A program made the position numbers and the translations under genes. From an uncultured Gammaproteobacteria bacterium (GTDB lineage: Bacteria; Patescibacteriota; Microgenomatia; UBA10105; UBA927), in the NCBI GenBank assembly GCA_964515005.1, contig CAZEVT010000001.1, forward strand, positions 229,616 to 293,615: a DNA stretch of 64,000 nucleotides, given 5' to 3'. The stretch's first letter is position 1; each line of letters opens with the position of its first letter. The notes under the pieces are model-generated. The model did no database searches and was not told the origin of the DNA. It worked only from the letters and a program-made list of their open reading frames with translations. Below, one piece after another: positions 15,787 to 21,607 of the stretch.

Positions 15787-16647
15787 TTAGAGCTCTTCGA
15801 GTTTGACGGCATCGGTGGCTTTGTCCTTCACCAGTTCTAGGTACCGTTCGGTTGTGGAGAGTCGCTTGTGGCCGACGAGCTTACTAAGCGTTGTGATTGA
15901 GGTTCCCGCCATTAAATGGTGGGCGATGAAAGTGTGGCGCAAATCGTTGACCTTCGCGCCTTCAATTCCCGCGATTCTAAAGTATCGGTCAATCGCGGTC
16001 CTAATGTTGCGGATAAGAAGCGGCCTGCCGGTTTTGGTGATAAAGAGGGCCTTGCTTTGTGCGTTTGTATTTCGCGTGGAAACATACCTATCCAGCGCCT
16101 CCTTAGCCGCTTTATTCAAGGGCACATCGCGTTCAGCGTGGCCTTCCTGGGCCGCAACATGGAGCTCGGTGTCGCTGGCGTCCGGTACGGTTAAGGCCGC
16201 AAGCTCGCCGATTCTGATGCCGGTTTGAAGGAACAGTTCCACAATGGCGTACATTCGGATGTCTCCGCGGCACGCGTCCCGAAGGGCCCGGTATTCGATT
16301 TTAGAGAGAATCCGGGGTGGCTTGACCTCATATTTGGGATGCGCAATTTCAATCGCCGGATCCATGGTGACGGCGCCTGAAGCCTTTAAAAATCGGAAAA
16401 AGGTCTTGATGGAGTTGATTTTACGGGAGATCGACTTGGGCGTGTATTTGTCGCTTGCGAGTTTCTTCAAAAACGCCTCGAGTTCGTCGCGGGTGATCTC
16501 GCCAATCGTCTTTTTGCCCATATTGGTCAAAAACTGGACGACCTGTTCGATGTCTTTGCCGTATGCTACGATGGTAGCGCGGGCCCGCCTGCGGCTCGTC
16601 AGGTACTCGGTAAATTGCGTATGTGCGGTCTTCAGGTCAAGTGCCAT
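15787..16647 (-). CDS. xerD: Tyrosine-type site-specific recombinase (XerC/XerD-like)
   Basis: Phage-integrase SAM-like N-domain and catalytic region with R...HxxR...Y (LRHTFIAHHLMAG...RYLEL). Confidence 0.8.
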   Translation of the reverse strand: MALDLKTAHTQFTEYLTSRRRARATIVAYGKDIEQVVQFLTNMGKKTIGEITRDELEAFLKKLASDKYTPKSISRKINSIKTFFRFLKASGAVTMDPAIEIAHPKYEVKPPRILSKIEYRALRDACRGDIRMYAIVELFLQTGIRIGELAALTVPDASDTELHVAAQEGHAERDVPLNKAAKEALDRYVSTRNTNAQSKALFITKTGRPLLIRNIRTAIDRYFRIAGIEGAKVNDLRHTFIAHHLMAGTSITTLSKLVGHKRLSTTERYLELVKDKATDAVKLEEL

Positions 16648-16704
16648 ATGGGTATTAGAGTCCTATAATATCACGAAATACGCTTAAGTTCAAGGGAGAA
16701 TATT

Positions 16705-17073
16705 ATGCCTGAACATATTGTATTCAAAATAGCACGAAATAGGTACATACGAGGGCTTGTTCTCGTATTTTTGGTCCTCGTGGGAGTCGGGGTCCTGCGC
16801 ACAGTCTATACCATATCCCAAAAACAAGGAATTGTTGCCGAAAGGAAAGCGGTCCTTGAGGCTGAAGAGGCGAAAAACAGGGAGCTTACCGCACGCCTGG
16901 AGGAAGCCACAAGCGCGGCGTTTGTTGAACGGATTGCACGGGACAAGCTGGGGCTGGTTCGCGCGGGGGAGACGGTGATTATCATGGATAAATCACAAGT
17001 TTTAAACCTCAACGACAAAGGAAGGCTTCAAGAATTGCCTTCATGGAAGCAGTGGTGGGAGCTATTTTTCTAG
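16705..17073 (+). CDS. ftsB: Septum formation initiator FtsB/DivIC-like cell division protein
   Basis: Single TM, coiled coil, and ERIARDKLGLVRAGETVI signature of the FtsB/DivIC family. Confidence 0.6.
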   Translation: MPEHIVFKIARNRYIRGLVLVFLVLVGVGVLRTVYTISQKQGIVAERKAVLEAEEAKNRELTARLEEATSAAFVERIARDKLGLVRAGETVIIMDKSQVLNLNDKGRLQELPSWKQWWELFF

Positions 17074-17145
17074 TGCCAGCGGCAGGGATCGGACCTGCTA
17101 CCAATGCTTTATGATAGCATCGCTCTACCAATGAGCTACGCTGGC
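17074..17145 (-). tRNA. tRNA-Met (anticodon CAU; elongator-type or possibly tRNA-Ile2), CCA not encoded
   Basis: Folds by hand into a cloverleaf: acceptor GCCAGCG/CGCUGGC, D arm GCUC-AUUGGUA-GAGC, anticodon loop AUCAUAA, T arm GCAGG-UCCGAUC-CCUGC; no GGG/CCC anticodon stem, so not an initiator. Confidence 0.6.
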
Positions 17146-17285
17146 AATGAGATCCCTCGACTTCGCTCGGGATGATGACTACATCATTTTACCGGTTTTG
17201 AGGCCAAAAGGCAATTTAGGCCGCATCAAATGCGGCACAAAGGGCCGTAATCGTAAATAACGTGTAGTTATTTACGAACGAGCCC

Positions 17286-17834
17286 TTAGTACGTCGTGAT
17301 GTGAATGCGGGATTGAGAGAGATTGGCGGTGAACTTCAGCTGCGTTTTCATTTGGACCTGATAAAGCTTACTTCCTTTATCCAGGGTAATGGGGGAGGAG
17401 GTTAAAAGAATGGGTCCCGTGGTATCCATCGAGACATCGGAAAACCACACCGGATGCTTATCGGTCGCGTTAAACAGGCGCGCGTACGCGGTTTGATTGC
17501 CGGTTGGCACGGAAACCGTTGCTTCAAACACGACTTTTTTGATTTTAGGGTACTGCGCCGTGTCCACATATGCCGAGGCGCCGGCTACATCCGTCCACTC
17601 ATCGGTGACGTTCGTGCCAGTGCCTAGCGGCACAAAATACTCTTTGGCTGTTGACCCTGCGGTTCCGGTGAGTTTGTTGATGGCCGACAGACAAGCAGAC
17701 GGACAGGCCGATGCGGCGGTTGTTTGGCCAAGCACGAACGTCTCGTTCCGGAAATTTTTGATGACGAAATAGTTAAGCACGATGAGGTTGACCAGAATGA
17801 GAATCAGTGGCAACGAAAACTTTTTGGTTTTCAT
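17286..17834 (-). CDS. Secreted/membrane-anchored hypothetical protein
   Basis: N-terminal TM/signal; Thr/Ser-rich; 4-nt overlap with relE stop suggests co-transcription. Confidence 0.4.
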   Translation of the reverse strand: MKTKKFSLPLILILVNLIVLNYFVIKNFRNETFVLGQTTAASACPSACLSAINKLTGTAGSTAKEYFVPLGTGTNVTDEWTDVAGASAYVDTAQYPKIKKVVFEATVSVPTGNQTAYARLFNATDKHPVWFSDVSMDTTGPILLTSSPITLDKGSKLYQVQMKTQLKFTANLSQSRIHITTY

Positions 17835-18088
17835 TTATATACTCCTTGCCGGTGTTCGATTTTCACAACTCTCACTGTACTCGTTTTTACATCAAAACGA
17901 TAGATGATGCGATAATCTCCAACTCGATACTTATAATACCCTTTAAGTTCTCCATGTAATTTGATTCCGGAAATTGGATTTTGCTTTAAAGATGCGTAGG
18001 CATGGATAATCCGTTCCTGTGTTGATAAGGGAAATTTCAAAAAAAGCTTATCTGTGCTTCGTTCAACGACGAAATATCTAGCGGGCAT
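17831..18088 (-). CDS. relE: RelE/ParE-family type II toxin (mRNA interferase)
   Basis: 85 aa, C-terminal YRIIYRFD...VRVVKIEHRQ typical of RelE/StbE; overlaps upstream antitoxin. Confidence 0.75.
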   Translation of the reverse strand: MPARYFVVERSTDKLFLKFPLSTQERIIHAYASLKQNPISGIKLHGELKGYYKYRVGDYRIIYRFDVKTSTVRVVKIEHRQGVYK

Positions 18089-18350
18089 GAGATGTAAATC
18101 GTTTCTTTATATTTTTTAGGGTTACATAATTGCCTTTAGCGATTTCTTTTTCGGCTTTACGAATATCGCTCATTGAATGGGTGAGAGAGTAAATGGTTTC
18201 TTCCAGTTCATCAAGATAATCAGGGGATATGAGTGTGGCCTTAACCCGACCATTTTTTGTGACGTCCACACGGGTATATTCCTCGTCAATTTTATCAACG
18301 AGGGTAAGGAAATTTTTTCGAGCTTGGGTTACAGGAATAACATACGTCAT
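18078..18350 (-). CDS. yefM: Phd/YefM-family antitoxin
   Basis: MTYVIPVTQARKNFLTLVDKI N-terminus typical of YefM/Phd; precedes relE with overlap. Confidence 0.7.
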   Translation of the reverse strand: MTYVIPVTQARKNFLTLVDKIDEEYTRVDVTKNGRVKATLISPDYLDELEETIYSLTHSMSDIRKAEKEIAKGNYVTLKNIKKRFTSHAR

Positions 18351-18356
18351 AATGAA

Positions 18357-18386
18357 AGTGTACACTTAAATGTACACTTTGTCAAT
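18357..18386 (-). promoter_or_regulatory. Promoter/operator of yefM-relE: TTGACA-17nt-TACACT on the minus strand with two TGTACACTT direct repeats overlapping it
   Basis: Minus-strand read ...cATTGACAaagtgtacatttaagtgTACACTttcattATG; TGTACA cores match the known YefM operator type. Confidence 0.55.
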
Positions 18387-18423
18387 GAGTTGTCGTTTGA
18401 CGAGCATTGAGCTATAATAGGGT

Positions 18424-18745
18424 TGTTCTTTAGAAGAATCGCGGGGTAGTGTAGAGTAGCACAGAAGGCTCAATATGGGCCCGTCGATATGCAAGTATCG
18501 GATGAAAATTTGGCTGTATCGGTGAAACCCAGATCGGGCAATACCGAGGCAACCTCCGATTAATCGGAGAGAGTCCGTAGAGACTATACGCCAAACCCTC
18601 ACAATACAGTGAGGAGATGATATAGTCCGGCACTCCCAGGAATGGGAGAATAACAGAAAAGCATAATCTTCTAGACCAGGCGCGCCTCCTGGCCCCGCAA
18701 CCAAGACACAAAAAAGCGACCGGAAGGGTCGCTTTTTGTTTGATA
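18424..18745 (+). ncRNA. Candidate structured non-coding RNA (~320 nt) of unknown class
   Basis: Non-coding interval bounded by a plus-strand TTGTCG-17-TATAAT promoter (18390-18418) and a GC hairpin plus T-run terminator (18712-18745); many short perfect stem-loops, including a GGAA-capped one; no class could be assigned. Confidence 0.35.
18712..18745. terminator. Bidirectional intrinsic terminator (aaaaaaGCGACCggaaGGGTCGCtttttg)
   Basis: 6-bp GC stem with A-run upstream and T-run downstream; serves rbp (minus) and the plus-strand candidate RNA. Confidence 0.7.
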
Positions 18746-18756
18746 TACAAATTTGT

Positions 18757-19146
18757 TTACCAATTTCTTCCTCCGCGGTCATCGCCTCTGTCACCACCTC
18801 TTCCTCCTCCACCTCCTCTAAACCCACCGCCTCCTCCTCGTCCTCCACCACCGCCATATCCGCCTCCACCACCACCGAATCCTCGGTTTTCTCGTGGGGC
18901 CATTGGCTTGGCTTCATTAACGACGATTGCTCGTCCATCAAGGGTTTTGCCATTGAGTTCTGCAATTGCCTTTTTCGCTTCGTCATCTGTGCTCATTTCG
19001 ACAAATCCGAATCCTCGTGATTTCCCGGAGAATTTATCGGAAATGATTGTTGCAGATGTCACCGTACCGATCGTTGCAAAAAAGCTGCGAAGAGAGTCTT
19101 CTGTCGTATCCCATGAAAGTCCCCCAACAAATAATTTAACTGCCAT
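18757..19146 (-). CDS. rbp: RRM-type RNA-binding protein with Gly/Arg-rich C-terminal tail
   Basis: RNP-2 LFVGGL and RNP-1 RGFGFVEM motifs; GGGGGYGGGGGRGGGGG tail; strong GGAGGTG RBS 10 nt upstream. Confidence 0.85.
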   Translation of the reverse strand: MAVKLFVGGLSWDTTEDSLRSFFATIGTVTSATIISDKFSGKSRGFGFVEMSTDDEAKKAIAELNGKTLDGRAIVVNEAKPMAPRENRGFGGGGGGYGGGGGRGGGGGFRGGGGGRGGDRGDDRGGRNW

Positions 19147-19275
19147 AAATAATATTCACCTCCTCGGTAGACCTCATCTATTACCTGACTAACCCACTGT
19201 TGGGGCATAGATCACGAACAGAAAGGTTGATAGTCGCATTGTATCACGAATAGGGAGATATGGTATGCTTGATCT

Positions 19276-20094
19276 ATGCTGCCCTACAAGAAGATAGACC
19301 ATTGGAAAGCTCTTTCTGAACTCTCTCCTCTTACCGATTTGTCTAATCCTCCCCGACAATTATATTTCGCCGGACGAAGAAGCGCGGGTCTTTTTGCCAA
19401 TTGTGTTGCCATTGTCGGCAGCCGCAGAATGACAGAATACGGCCGGCGGGTAATAGAAAAAATCATCCCCCGGCTTGTGTTTGAAAAGAAAACTATAGTA
19501 TCTGGGTTTATGTACGGGGTAGATCAGTACGCACACCAGATGTGCTTAGAAAACGGCGGTAAAACAATTGCCGTGTTGGGGTGGGGAATCGGCGAGCCCC
19601 TTGAAGGAACCGACCGCAAACTTGCAGGGCGTATTATTTCGTCCGGCGGGCTCCTGATGAGCGAATGGGAAAGACAAAAGCCTACGCTATGGACCTTTCC
19701 GGTGCGCAATCGCATTGTGGCGGCGCTCTGCAATGAGGTGATCGTTGTTGAAGCGGCGGTCAAAAGCGGGTCGCTTATTACCGCCAATATCGCGCGCAAA
19801 CTGAAGCGCACCGTGTGGGCAGTTCCCGGTCCGATCACCAGTAGGACCTCTGCCGGGACCAATGCGCTTATCGCCGCGGGCGAGGCCGCGATGTGGCTGG
19901 GAGATGTTCCGCCACCTGCGGCCGTTTCGGATGACCCCATTGTGTCCGTGCTTGCTTCCGAAGCGTTAAGCGCAAGTGAACTGGCGCGAAAACTTGGGAA
20001 ACCGGTCTCAGACGTGGGTGCACAACTTTCTTTTCTTGCCATCACCGGACAGCTCACCGAGCGGGGAGGGAAATATTACGTTAGTCAAAATTAA
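19276..20094 (+). CDS. dprA: DNA processing protein DprA (Smf)
   Basis: Rossmann-like DprA core (AIVGSRRMTEYG...VVSGFMYGVDQYAH...IAVLGWGI) with C-terminal winged-helix extension. Confidence 0.8.
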   Translation: MLPYKKIDHWKALSELSPLTDLSNPPRQLYFAGRRSAGLFANCVAIVGSRRMTEYGRRVIEKIIPRLVFEKKTIVSGFMYGVDQYAHQMCLENGGKTIAVLGWGIGEPLEGTDRKLAGRIISSGGLLMSEWERQKPTLWTFPVRNRIVAALCNEVIVVEAAVKSGSLITANIARKLKRTVWAVPGPITSRTSAGTNALIAAGEAAMWLGDVPPPAAVSDDPIVSVLASEALSASELARKLGKPVSDVGAQLSFLAITGQLTERGGKYYVSQN

Positions 20095-21607
20095 ATCAAT
20101 CGCCAATGTGGGCCTTGAAAGTGTACCTGTGGACGTGGAAGTGGATGTAGCGTCTGCGGGTTTTCCGGGTTTTACGATTGTGGGTTTGGCAAGTAAGGCG
20201 GTCGAGGAAGCACGTGAGCGGGTAAAAACGGCGATCGTCAATTCCGGTTTTGATTTTCCGCCCAAAAAAATTACGGTCAACCTCGCTCCGGCGGATTTGC
20301 CGAAAGACGGCGCGGCCTACGATTTGCCGATCGCAATTGGCGTCCTTATCGCAAGCGGGCAGGTTACGTTGCCTAAAGGAAACATATATTTTTATGGAGA
20401 GCTTTCTCTTGACGGGGCGCTTCGGTCTACCCGCGGTATTTTGCTTTTAGCCCTTCATGCTGCAAAAAAGAAAGACGCTATTATTTTTATCCCTGCTTCG
20501 TCGGCTGCGGAGGCGAGCGTGGTGTCGGGCGTTACGGTATTGCCGGTCCCCATGCTTGTTGATCTCGTCCGGCACATGACCGGCGAAAAAATAATTCCTG
20601 CACTTCCCCATACGGCATACGAGAGTATTGACGAGGAAGTATCGATTGATTTTGATCTTAAAGAAATTGCCGGTCAGGAGCAGGCCAAGCGGGCGCTCGT
20701 TATTGCTGCCGCGGGTGGACACAACATGCTCATGTGGGGCCCGCCGGGAACGGGGAAGACCATGCTTGCGCGCGCACTCCCCGGCATATTACCGCCACTT
20801 ACCGACGCCGAGGCGCTTGAGGTAACACGAATTTTTTCGATTTCCGGGCTCTTATCGCCGGGTGTAGCACTTATCAAAAAACGTTCATTTCGGTCTCCGC
20901 ATCATGGGGTATCGGCGGCGGGTGTCATCGGCGGGGGAACCAATCCGTTGCCGGGAGAGGTTTCGCTGGCTCATTTGGGCGTATTGTTTTTGGACGAAAT
21001 GCCCGAGTTTCCGCGAAGTGTTTTGGAGAGCCTTCGGCAGCCCATGGAGGATGGCGTGGTGGAGATCGTCCGCGTCTCGGGCCACGTACGGTATCCGGCA
21101 AGTTTTACTTTAATTGCTGCCATTAATCCGTGTCCGTGCGGGTATTTGGGTCACCCGCGCCGGGAATGTAAATGCACCGATAAACAGATCGCCAAATATC
21201 GTCACCGCATTTCCGGGCCTATTTTGGATCGTATTGATTTGACCGTCTCGGTCGCGCCGGTTGAAGTGGAAAAATTATCTATTACAAAAGCCCATGCGGG
21301 TGAAGCGCTCACCTCAAAAGAGGCAAAAGCGTTGGTGATACAAGCACGAAGAACTCAGGCCAAACGTTTTGCGGGAACGCCCTTGTATACCAATTCCCAA
21401 ATGCGAAATCGCGAGGTGAAAGCGCTTTGTCAGTTGACTCCGGAGGCGGAGAATTTTTTGAAACTCGCAGCCGAAAAATACGACTTTTCCGCTCGAAGCT
21501 ACATGCGGCTTATCAAAGTAGCCCGTACAATTGCAGATTTATCCCACGAAAAAACCATTCTTCCCGCGCACATGGCAGAAGCCATTCAATACAAACAATT
21601 GGTATGA
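20084..21607 (+). CDS. comM: YifB/ComM-family Mg-chelatase-like AAA+ ATPase (start uncertain; ORF-track ATG at 19976 would overlap dprA by 118 nt)
   Basis: N-terminal Lon-protease-like domain, Walker A GPPGTGKTMLARAL, C-terminal Mg-chelatase subunit ChlI domain; alignment to family N-terminus suggests a start near 20078-20105. Confidence 0.8.
   Translation, partial: VKIKSIANVGLESVPVDVEVDVASAGFPGFTIVGLASKAVEEARERVKTAIVNSGFDFPPKKITVNLAPADLPKDGAAYDLPIAIGVLIASGQVTLPKGNIYFYGELSLDGALRSTRGILLLALHAAKKKDAIIFIPASSAAEASVVSGVTVLPVPMLVDLVRHMTGEKIIPALPHTAYESIDEEVSIDFDLKEIAGQEQAKRALVIAAAGGHNMLMWGPPGTGKTMLARALPGILPPLTDAEALEVTRIFSISGLLSPGVALIKKRSFRSPHHGVSAAGVIGGGTNPLPGEVSLAHLGVLFLDEMPEFPRSVLESLRQPMEDGVVEIVRVSGHVRYPASFTLIAAINPCPCGYLGHPRRECKCTDKQIAKYRHRISGPILDRIDLTVSVAPVEVEKLSITKAHAGEALTSKEAKALVIQARRTQAKRFAGTPLYTNSQMRNREVKALCQLTPEAENFLKLAAEKYDFSARSYMRLIKVARTIADLSHEKTILPAHMAEAIQYKQLV

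Follow-up and report, generated by a model that had tools for sequence, protein, structure and literature searches.

What is encoded in the 391 nt that separate two minus-strand genes, a Phd/YefM gene (18078-18365) and a gene for an RRM protein (18757-19146), in a window of 64 kb (the whole stretch of DNA analysed, 64,000 nucleotides long) whose source is a Gottesmanbacteria-like CPR bacterium? An earlier note, made from the sequence by eye, had described this gap as a promoter-to-terminator non-coding unit (18389-18745, plus strand), rich in short hairpins, and had suggested an unclassified structured RNA. The non-coding unit is borne out by a promoter scan, a terminator scan and the failure of ORFs to match Pfam: on the minus strand, a Pfam search at E <= 0.1 finds nothing for either of the two mechanical ORFs that overlap the gap (18430-18750 and 18366-18986), and the coding reading was rejected. 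As to what the unit is, we conclude that it is very probably a stand-alone tRNA(CAU) gene, most likely specifying initiator tRNA-fMet, that is split between positions 33 and 34 by a 191-nt group I self-splicing intron; that a group I intron resides in a tRNA(CAU) gene can be stated with high confidence.

The Rfam scan that had been suggested identifies the core of the unit. At the gathering threshold, the entire window yields only two matches, a tRNA at 17074-17145 (minus strand) and RF00028, the group I intron, at 18461-18649 (plus strand; 58.8 bits, the gathering score being 50; E = 2.3e-12), the latter covering model positions 1-253 of 253. The RNA is not tmRNA, SRP, 6S or RNase P RNA, to none of which the earlier note could assign it by eye. 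The fragments that had looked like RNase P are present, but they are elements of a group I core rather than of RNase P: GGUGAAACC runs from the 3' end of P4 through J4/5 to the 5' strand of P5, AUAGUCCGG supplies P7 with its 3' strand, and ACAGAAAAG|C holds the intron's 3' end with its terminal G.

Relatives of the split gene were sought by scanning species-representative genomes with the pattern CGCGGGG-N(115-145)-GTAGAGACTA-N(90-120)-CCCCGCA. The scan returned 92 loci (~4 being expected by chance), all with the same split-gene layout; since the pattern itself dictates the acceptor stem, GTAGAGACTA (part of P7) and the size range, it is no evidence that none of these varies among the 93 genes (the window and 92 others). 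Most of the 92 genomes are Microgenomates (CPR/Patescibacteria: Levy-, Davies-, Gottesman-, Roizman- and Woesebacteria), and a few of the loci come from other Patescibacteria or from MAGs titled Elusimicrobia or Planctomycetales. Closest to the window is OY969569.1 (L088), a chromosome from Gottesmanbacteria, with ~75% identity over a syntenic tRNA-rbp-dprA-comM block. RF00028 passes its gathering score in 11 of 14 relatives that were tested.

The intron itself extends from 18471 to 18661 on the plus strand (191 nt), an identification resting on the RF00028 match, on covariation among the 93 homologues and on the fold. Its minimum free energy is -63.2 kcal/mol, compared with -44.0 +/- 4.1 for dinucleotide shuffles (z = -4.64), and 0/200 shuffles fold as well; together with the Rfam E-value of 2e-12 for the whole window, this sustains the description of the region as highly structured. 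A group I core can be drawn in full, with P3-P8 and P4-P6 domains and a P3/P7 pseudoknot containing the G-binding site, and every hairpin that had been listed by eye is present and can now be named as a helix of the intron or of the tRNA. The 3' strand of P1, the internal guide sequence GGGCC (18477-18481), pairs with 18467-18471 (GGCU|C), U18470.G18478 being the splice-site wobble; P1 is 98.7% paired, with U.G in 92/93 genes. A P10 helix is possible, as read from the sequence, between UAUG (18474-18477) and the first bases of the 3' exon, CAUA. P2 (18484-18501) is the hairpin GUCGAUA/UAUCGGAU, with 6/6 pairs changed on both sides, and appears, like P8, in the minimum-free-energy fold of the intron.

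The 5' strand of P3, UUUGGC (18509-18514), has its partner GCCAAA at 18590-18595; 98.9% of its cells are paired and 5/6 pairs show compensatory changes in the 93-sequence alignment. P4 (18519-18522/18544-18547) is almost invariant and 100% paired, and the segment that it bounds (18519-18547) contains J4/5 (UGAAA) and the P5 hairpin (18528-18538), all three of whose pairs covary. P6 (18548-18550/18574-18576), whose third pair is GC in 44 cases, AU in 15 and CG in 8, encloses P6a (18554-18569), the hairpin CUCCGAUU/AAUCGGAG, with a UUAA loop and a stem of 6 bp that is perfect in the window; P6a aligns poorly in MAFFT and is missing from two relatives (L038 and L063). P7, the guanosine-binding helix, which forms a pseudoknot with P3, consists of GACUA (18582-18586) and UAGUC (18623-18627) and is 99.8% paired. 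Its 5' strand is followed directly by the 3' strand of P3, leaving no room for P7.1/P7.2, the helices diagnostic of subgroup IA. P8 (18597-18614) is CCUCAC-AAUACA-GUGAGG, with compensatory changes in 5/6 pairs; P9 (18633-18648) is CUCCCA-GGAA-UGGGAG, capped by a GNRA tetraloop, 93.4% paired, with 5/6 pairs covarying. The terminal G at 18661 (omega-G), which marks the 3' splice site, is invariant in 93/93 genes and is directly followed by CAUAA in 93/93. No ORF lies within the intron, which hence encodes no homing endonuclease.

The flanks of this intron are the two halves of a tRNA. The 5' exon (18440-18470, plus strand; CGCGGGGUAGUGUAGAGUAGCACAGAAGGCU) provides the acceptor strand CGCGGGG and the D arm GUGU-AGAGUA-GCAC and ends with the 5' strand of the anticodon stem, GAAGG, followed by C32 and U33, its last four bases, GGCU, being the exon side of P1. 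The 3' exon (18662-18703, plus strand; CAUAAUCUUCUAGACCAGGCGCGCCUCCUGGCCCCGCAACCA) opens with the anticodon C34 A35 U36, followed by A37 and A38, the anticodon-stem strand UCUUC, the variable region UAGA and the T arm CCAGG-CGCGCCU-CCUGG (the hairpin CCAGG/CCUGG of the earlier note is its stem), and closes with the acceptor strand CCCCGCA, the discriminator A and an encoded CCA. The intron lies between U33 and C34 of the anticodon loop. Joining the exons at the predicted junction, ...GAAGGCU|CAUAAUCUUC..., generates a 73-nt cloverleaf with acceptor, D, anticodon and T stems of 7, 4, 5 and 5 bp, an anticodon loop CUCAUAA and the anticodon CAU. ARAGORN, with introns of up to 400 nt allowed, calls no tRNA in the native region, and none in the spliced product. 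We take this to be a limit of the tool arising from the T-loop, because 85/93 spliced homologues are called as tRNA-Met(cat).

Covariation was counted on a MAFFT alignment of the 93 sequences, misalignment in which under-counts P6a (43% paired) and P8 (69% paired). In the ribozyme structure as a whole, 86.7% of cells are paired and 33/50 pairs have changed on both sides; its covariation score, 0.374, compares with a shuffle mean of 0.167, is reached by 0/500 shuffles and falls to 0.164 or less when partners are slid. The corresponding values for the spliced tRNA are 99.6% of cells paired, 10/20 pairs changed on both sides and a score of 0.327 against a shuffle mean of 0.106, again reached by 0/500 shuffles; a shift of partners by one column lowers its pairing to ~43%. 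Within the intron, P2, P3, P5, P6, P8 and P9 show covariation and P4 and P7 are invariant, the latter so nearly completely (and in part by construction of the search pattern) that it is uninformative on this count. In the tRNA, the T stem covaries in 5/5 pairs. Two upper pairs of the anticodon stem covary across the intron, between bases ~200 nt apart (UA46/GC21/CG19 and GC53/AU28/CG8). The earlier note had made its reading depend on covarying base pairs in orthologues; strong covariation is what is found, though for a known class of RNA. The sequence, secondary structure, covariation and homology of the split gene are established by these comparisons.

The signals that bound the gene had been correctly spotted. 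A scan recovers the putative sigma-70-type promoter on the plus strand at 18390-18418 (TTGTCG, a 17-nt spacer and TATAAT; 10/12 matches), and TTGAC(G)-N17/18-TATAAT is found in five relatives (L088, L050, L091, L049 and L016) at the same distance from the start of the tRNA as in the window. The segment between promoter and tRNA (18419-18439, plus strand) is a pre-tRNA 5' leader containing TGTTCTTTA, which is kept in the nearest relatives; on the analogy of general tRNA biology, the leader is presumably removed by RNase P. The intrinsic terminator, also recovered by scan, lies at 18711-18737, with an 11-bp stem and a T-run. Six relatives (L088, L050, L001, L049, L085 and L016) likewise have a hairpin and T-run 3' of the gene. 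In the window, the hairpin sits between convergent genes, the tRNA gene on the plus strand and the RRM gene on the minus strand. An A-run as well as a T-run flanks it, so that either strand yields a terminator call, and it could therefore also serve the latter gene. (That gene, rbp, encodes an RRM/glycine-rich RNA-binding protein.) Two other candidates raised by a permissive Rfam scan of 18300-18800, RNAI and MicX, were discarded: both are sub-threshold, on the minus strand, and pick up nothing but this hairpin.

Does the split gene specify the initiator or the elongator tRNA? Bacterial initiator tRNAs have A11:U24 in the D stem. The window tRNA and 87/93 relatives have U11:A24. An anticodon stem with three G-C pairs is a P-site feature (PMC5389676); in place of three consecutive ones (29:41, 30:40 and 31:39) the window has A29-U41, G30-C40 and G31.U39. 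Both properties are elongator-like, and Nakagawa et al. 2026 (mSystems, PMC13011429), in a survey of 4,934 complete bacterial genomes, label homologous Microgenomatia genes 'Met (CAT)' by way of the best intron-less BLAST match. That the same architecture, with its group I intron at 33/34, has an elongator tRNA-Met for its host is nevertheless unlikely. Natural initiator variants with an au/GC/gu anticodon stem exist, G30-C40 being the essential pair that suffices (PMC5389676); au/GC/gu is the stem of the window tRNA and of 86/93 relatives, with G30-C40 kept. The determinants for Fmt are a mismatch at 1:72 (C1:A72) together with 2:71 and 3:70 (PMC5389676), and the window tRNA has the set, C1xA72, G2-C71 and C3-G70 (CGCGGGG/CCCCGCA-ACCA); in the relatives these positions are fixed by the search pattern, and only the window counts as evidence. 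Moreover, the homologues grade into fully canonical initiator sequences, A11:U24 included, that carry the intron in the identical position (L031, L053 and L075). Finally, the window has another tRNA(CAU), 1.3 kb distant at 17073-17145 (minus strand), whose end is paired (G1-C72) and which is the only tRNA that ARAGORN calls in the 64 kb; the inventory covers just these 64 kb of the genome, and a canonical tRNA-fMet elsewhere is possible. On the strength of these sequence features, the split gene probably encodes initiator tRNA-fMet.

For an initiator tRNA gene interrupted in this way, we infer catalysis, processing, charging and formylation at the locus along the following lines. Transcription would be directed by TTGTCG/TATAAT, start ~15-20 nt upstream of the tRNA and stop at the hairpin 18711-18737. 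In the precursor, GGCU of the exon would pair with GGCC of the intron's guide sequence to form P1, the U33.G wobble marking the 5' splice site. The intron core (P3-P8, P4-P6 and the guanosine pocket in P7) would bind free guanosine or GTP, which would attack after U33. The terminal G at 18661 would then enter the pocket, P10 (CAUA with UAUG) would align the 3' exon, and the 3'-OH of U33 would attack in turn. Ligation of U33 to C34 would create the anticodon, CAU, together with its stem; the latter being incompatible with P1, it would form only once P1 is gone. RNase P and 3' trimming would yield the 73-nt tRNA with its encoded CCA end, which may be charged with methionine and then formylated, given C1xA72, G2:C71 and C3:G70.

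A further layer may be imagined on top of this pathway, in which splicing is a regulated checkpoint: the level of guanosine or GTP, or Mg-dependent folding, would control how much initiator tRNA is available to a bacterium whose genome encodes few protein regulators. Nakagawa et al. suggest (PMC13011429) that introns may be RNA-based regulatory elements in Patescibacteria, and at least 92 species have kept the intron, which encodes no homing endonuclease. However, it is a minimal intron with no sensor domain or extra aptamer, and the difficulty of losing it precisely would account just as well for its being kept. A checkpoint of this kind is thus quite improbable.

The tRNA that would emerge from splicing has an unusual elbow. 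The contacts G18.Psi55 and G19.C56 are almost universally conserved in tRNA (PMC1851642). The window tRNA departs from the canonical elbow (G18G19 with T54-Psi55-C56-R57-A58): its D-loop is AGAGUA (A18 G19) and its T-loop CGCGCCU, that is, C54 G55 C56 G57 C58, so that only G19-C56 and R57 are retained. Across the 93 genes, D-loops with GG go with U or C at 55 in 40/40 cases and D-loops with AG go with G55 in 53/53, while C56 is invariant. Parsimony on a neighbour-joining tree built from 226 other well-aligned columns counts ~11 changes at 18 and ~11 at 55, always coinciding (the tree being rough, the number of joint switches is approximate). The D-loop is reduced to 5-6 nt, and in the small Gottesmanbacteria clade to which the window belongs (with L050, L088 and L091) C58 replaces A58, position 54 is C and the T54.A58 pair is lost. 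The switch from G18.U55 to A18.G55 looks like real tertiary covariation. We raise only tentatively the possibility that the presumed initiator tRNA of the Microgenomates has rebuilt its elbow, A18/G55 replacing the near-universal G18.Psi55 contact. A shallow literature search on such an elbow turned up nothing relevant beyond tRNA-Pyl, which functions with a 5-nt D-loop and without G18G19 or T54-Psi55-C56 (PMC1851642). It resembles the window tRNA in having a non-canonical elbow and is unrelated to it in sequence and function; its 6-bp anticodon stem and the one base between its acceptor and D stems are absent from the window tRNA, which, unlike tRNA-Pyl, retains G19-C56.

These same loops are what might lead one to regard the locus as a pseudogene in decay, in which a dead intron sits in what remains of a tRNA and the odd T- and D-loops follow from lost function: CGCGCCU lacks T54, Psi55 and A58, and ARAGORN rejects the spliced product. 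The comparison with relatives makes this very improbable. Compensatory changes keep the stems in 93 genomes; the T-loop CGCGCCU is shared with three other species (L050, L088 and L091); the A18/G55 change is strict covariation, not random decay; relatives retain promoter and terminator; and the catalytic core of the intron is intact by its RF00028 match. The reading with which the earlier note ended, a free-standing unclassified small structured RNA, which has in its favour the promoter and terminator of its own and the lack of an annotated tRNA call at the site, is scarcely credible now that the core is known to score above the gathering cutoff of RF00028, the flanks have been joined into a covarying tRNA(CAU), and homologues are found to have been published.

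What follows from a functional split tRNA gene at this locus concerns, in the first place, annotation. The window holds a tRNA(CAU), probably the initiator, that ARAGORN misses twice over, before splicing through the intron and after splicing through the divergent T-loop; genomes of the window's clade would consequently seem to be without this tRNA(CAU). The scan also extends a known family of Microgenomatia introns to at least 92 species-level genomes. The intron itself is ordinary, and the strict A18/G55 covariation of its host tRNA is the sole point that may merit the attention of specialists. If the rebuilt elbow is true and undescribed, an essential bacterial tRNA would offer a natural alternative to the usual contact between D- and T-loop, with consequences for the enzymes that modify Psi55 and m5U54, for tRNA gene finders, and for the contacts that RNase P and the ribosomal P site make with the elbow.

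How does the split gene compare with those already known? The survey of Nakagawa et al. finds 33/34 of tRNA-fMet to be a common group I site, in agreement with previous studies, and for the insertion sites that are classical in tRNA it refers to Reinhold-Hurek & Shub 1992 and Paquin et al. 1997; it gives lengths of 184-894 nt for tRNA introns (PMC13011429), a range that includes the 191 nt of the window intron. For other tRNA introns of Patescibacteria (Asn and Asp, at 35/36), the same paper reports guanosine-dependent self-splicing. The closest counterparts are in its Table S3, which has Met(CAT) genes with 33/34 introns in two Microgenomatia genomes, GCA_001029755.1 and GCA_013426185.1. Bacterial class and insertion site are those of the window, and so are the exon type (..GGGGTAGTGTA..GCAC..AGGCT | CATAATCT..) and the core (GGCTATATCGG.GAA.., CCGAGG.AAG, GTAGAGACTAYACGCC and GATATAGTCCG.CACTC); the introns are 190 and 216 nt long, against 191 nt. 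These genes differ from the window in beginning with TGCGGGG (U1) rather than CGCGGGG (C1xA72), in having T-loops TTCAACT and TTCGATC and D-loops with GG in place of A18/G55 and C58, and in being labelled Met, not fMet.

Subgroup is harder to read from such comparisons. The survey assigns no Patescibacteria tRNA intron to IC, and places the tRNA-fMet(CAU) 33/34 introns of Cyanobacteriota and other phyla in subgroup IC3 (PMC13011429, Table S5). In local alignment, the window intron scores 106 against a Microgenomatia Met intron (the best), 65 against an IA3 Phe intron, and 58 and 39 against two IC3 fMet introns; its core is nearer to an IA3-labelled intron than to the IC3 fMet introns by this measure. 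Global pairwise identity to the published introns is 73-80% for all of them and non-discriminating. The Cyanobacteriota-type fMet introns share with the window the host tRNA, the site after U33, the junction GGCU|CAUAA and group I chemistry. Some cyanobacterial copies encode PD-(D/E)XK endonucleases (PMC13011429), whereas the window intron has no ORF. The cores differ as well, the Cyanobacteriota type having GTCAAATTCGG.GAAGC, CCGAGCCAAG, GGTGTAGAGACTxGAxGGC and AGTCCAGACCACAAAC and a larger P9 region; it is found in 7/93 loci, the window not being among the seven. The tRNA-Ile(CAU) intron of Azoarcus is similarly small (~200 nt), lies in the anticodon loop, and has the P7 segment GUAGAGACUA, a GNRA-capped P9 and no ORF; its host tRNA is another one, its insertion is after the anticodon, and it belongs to subgroup IC3. 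For a tRNA(CAU) split by a group I intron at 33/34, the kind of element, the site and the lineage have all been reported before, and the gene in the window is one more orthologue.

The elbow of the split tRNA(CAU) varies under strict constraint. When the columns of its D-loop (18453-18458 in the window) and T-loop (18681-18687) are compared across the window gene and the 92 homologous split-gene loci (L001-L092), a D-loop GG is accompanied by U or C at T-loop position 55 in 40 of 40 genes and a D-loop AG by G at that position in 53 of 53; C56 of the T-loop does not vary. On a neighbour-joining tree, the D-loop and position 55 switch jointly approximately 11 times. Covariation this strict, read from aligned sequences, suggests that the near-universal G18.Psi55 contact is replaced by A18.G55. 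Among the 93 genes, the T-loop CGCGCCU (C54 G55 C56 G57 C58) is confined to the Gottesmanbacteria clade of the window, L050, L088 and L091, implying that T54.A58 is also lost there. (ARAGORN makes no call for eight of the 93 spliced tRNAs, the window's among them.)

The window holds a second tRNA(CAU) at 17073-17145 on the minus strand (Rfam score of 62 bits, and an ARAGORN call), which is either elongator Met or Ile2. Its G1-C72 end is paired and A32 is present. Its T-loop, UCCGAUC, has C at position 55, which is thus a non-U there too.

In the short 5' leader of the split gene, past the -10 box and ahead of tRNA position 1, sits a TGTTCTTTA motif (18424-18432) that is conserved upstream of the tRNA in L088, L050 and L091. 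At the other end, a terminator scan identifies a hairpin (18711-18737) with an A-run and a T-run on its flanks, a single structure that scores as an intrinsic terminator on either strand and separates the convergent tRNA and rbp (RRM protein) genes. A ParE-toxin/Phd-YefM antitoxin pair (17831-18365, minus strand) falls inside the only part of window positions 16000-21000, ~17724-18413, that blastn does not match to L088, the window's nearest relative, which is otherwise syntenic. Judged from that comparison, the toxin-antitoxin stretch may be a lineage-specific insertion adjoining the tRNA gene.

The Microgenomates-type gene is present in many TPA MAG records that bear the title 'uncultured Gammaproteobacteria' or 'Pseudomonadales' (L001, L002, L016, L019, L020, L033 and ~25 others). 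The flanking DNA of L001 is 77-81% identical to that of the window, and these taxonomic titles are probably wrong. A match to the AdoCbl-II riboswitch aptamer on the Roizmanbacteria contig L015 (6824-6878, minus strand), barely above the gathering score (38.5 vs 36.5), has no relation to the split tRNA gene.

Two distinct types of intron core occupy the 33/34 site among the 93 sequences. The Microgenomates type (86 sequences) is closer to the IA3 example of Nakagawa et al. 2026 (PMC13011429). The IC3 type (L012, L022, L031, L053, L062, L075 and L078) is found too in MAGs titled Taylor-, Nomura- and Brennerbacteria and Saccharibacteria; that paper's survey of complete genomes detected no introns of group IC in the tRNA genes of Patescibacteria. 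Two very small members of the family, L038 (1952-2186) and L063 (511-747), have introns of ~166-168 nt, from which P6a is wholly absent in the 93-sequence alignment. Both fall short of 184 nt, the lower end of the length range that PMC13011429 gives for introns in bacterial tRNA genes.
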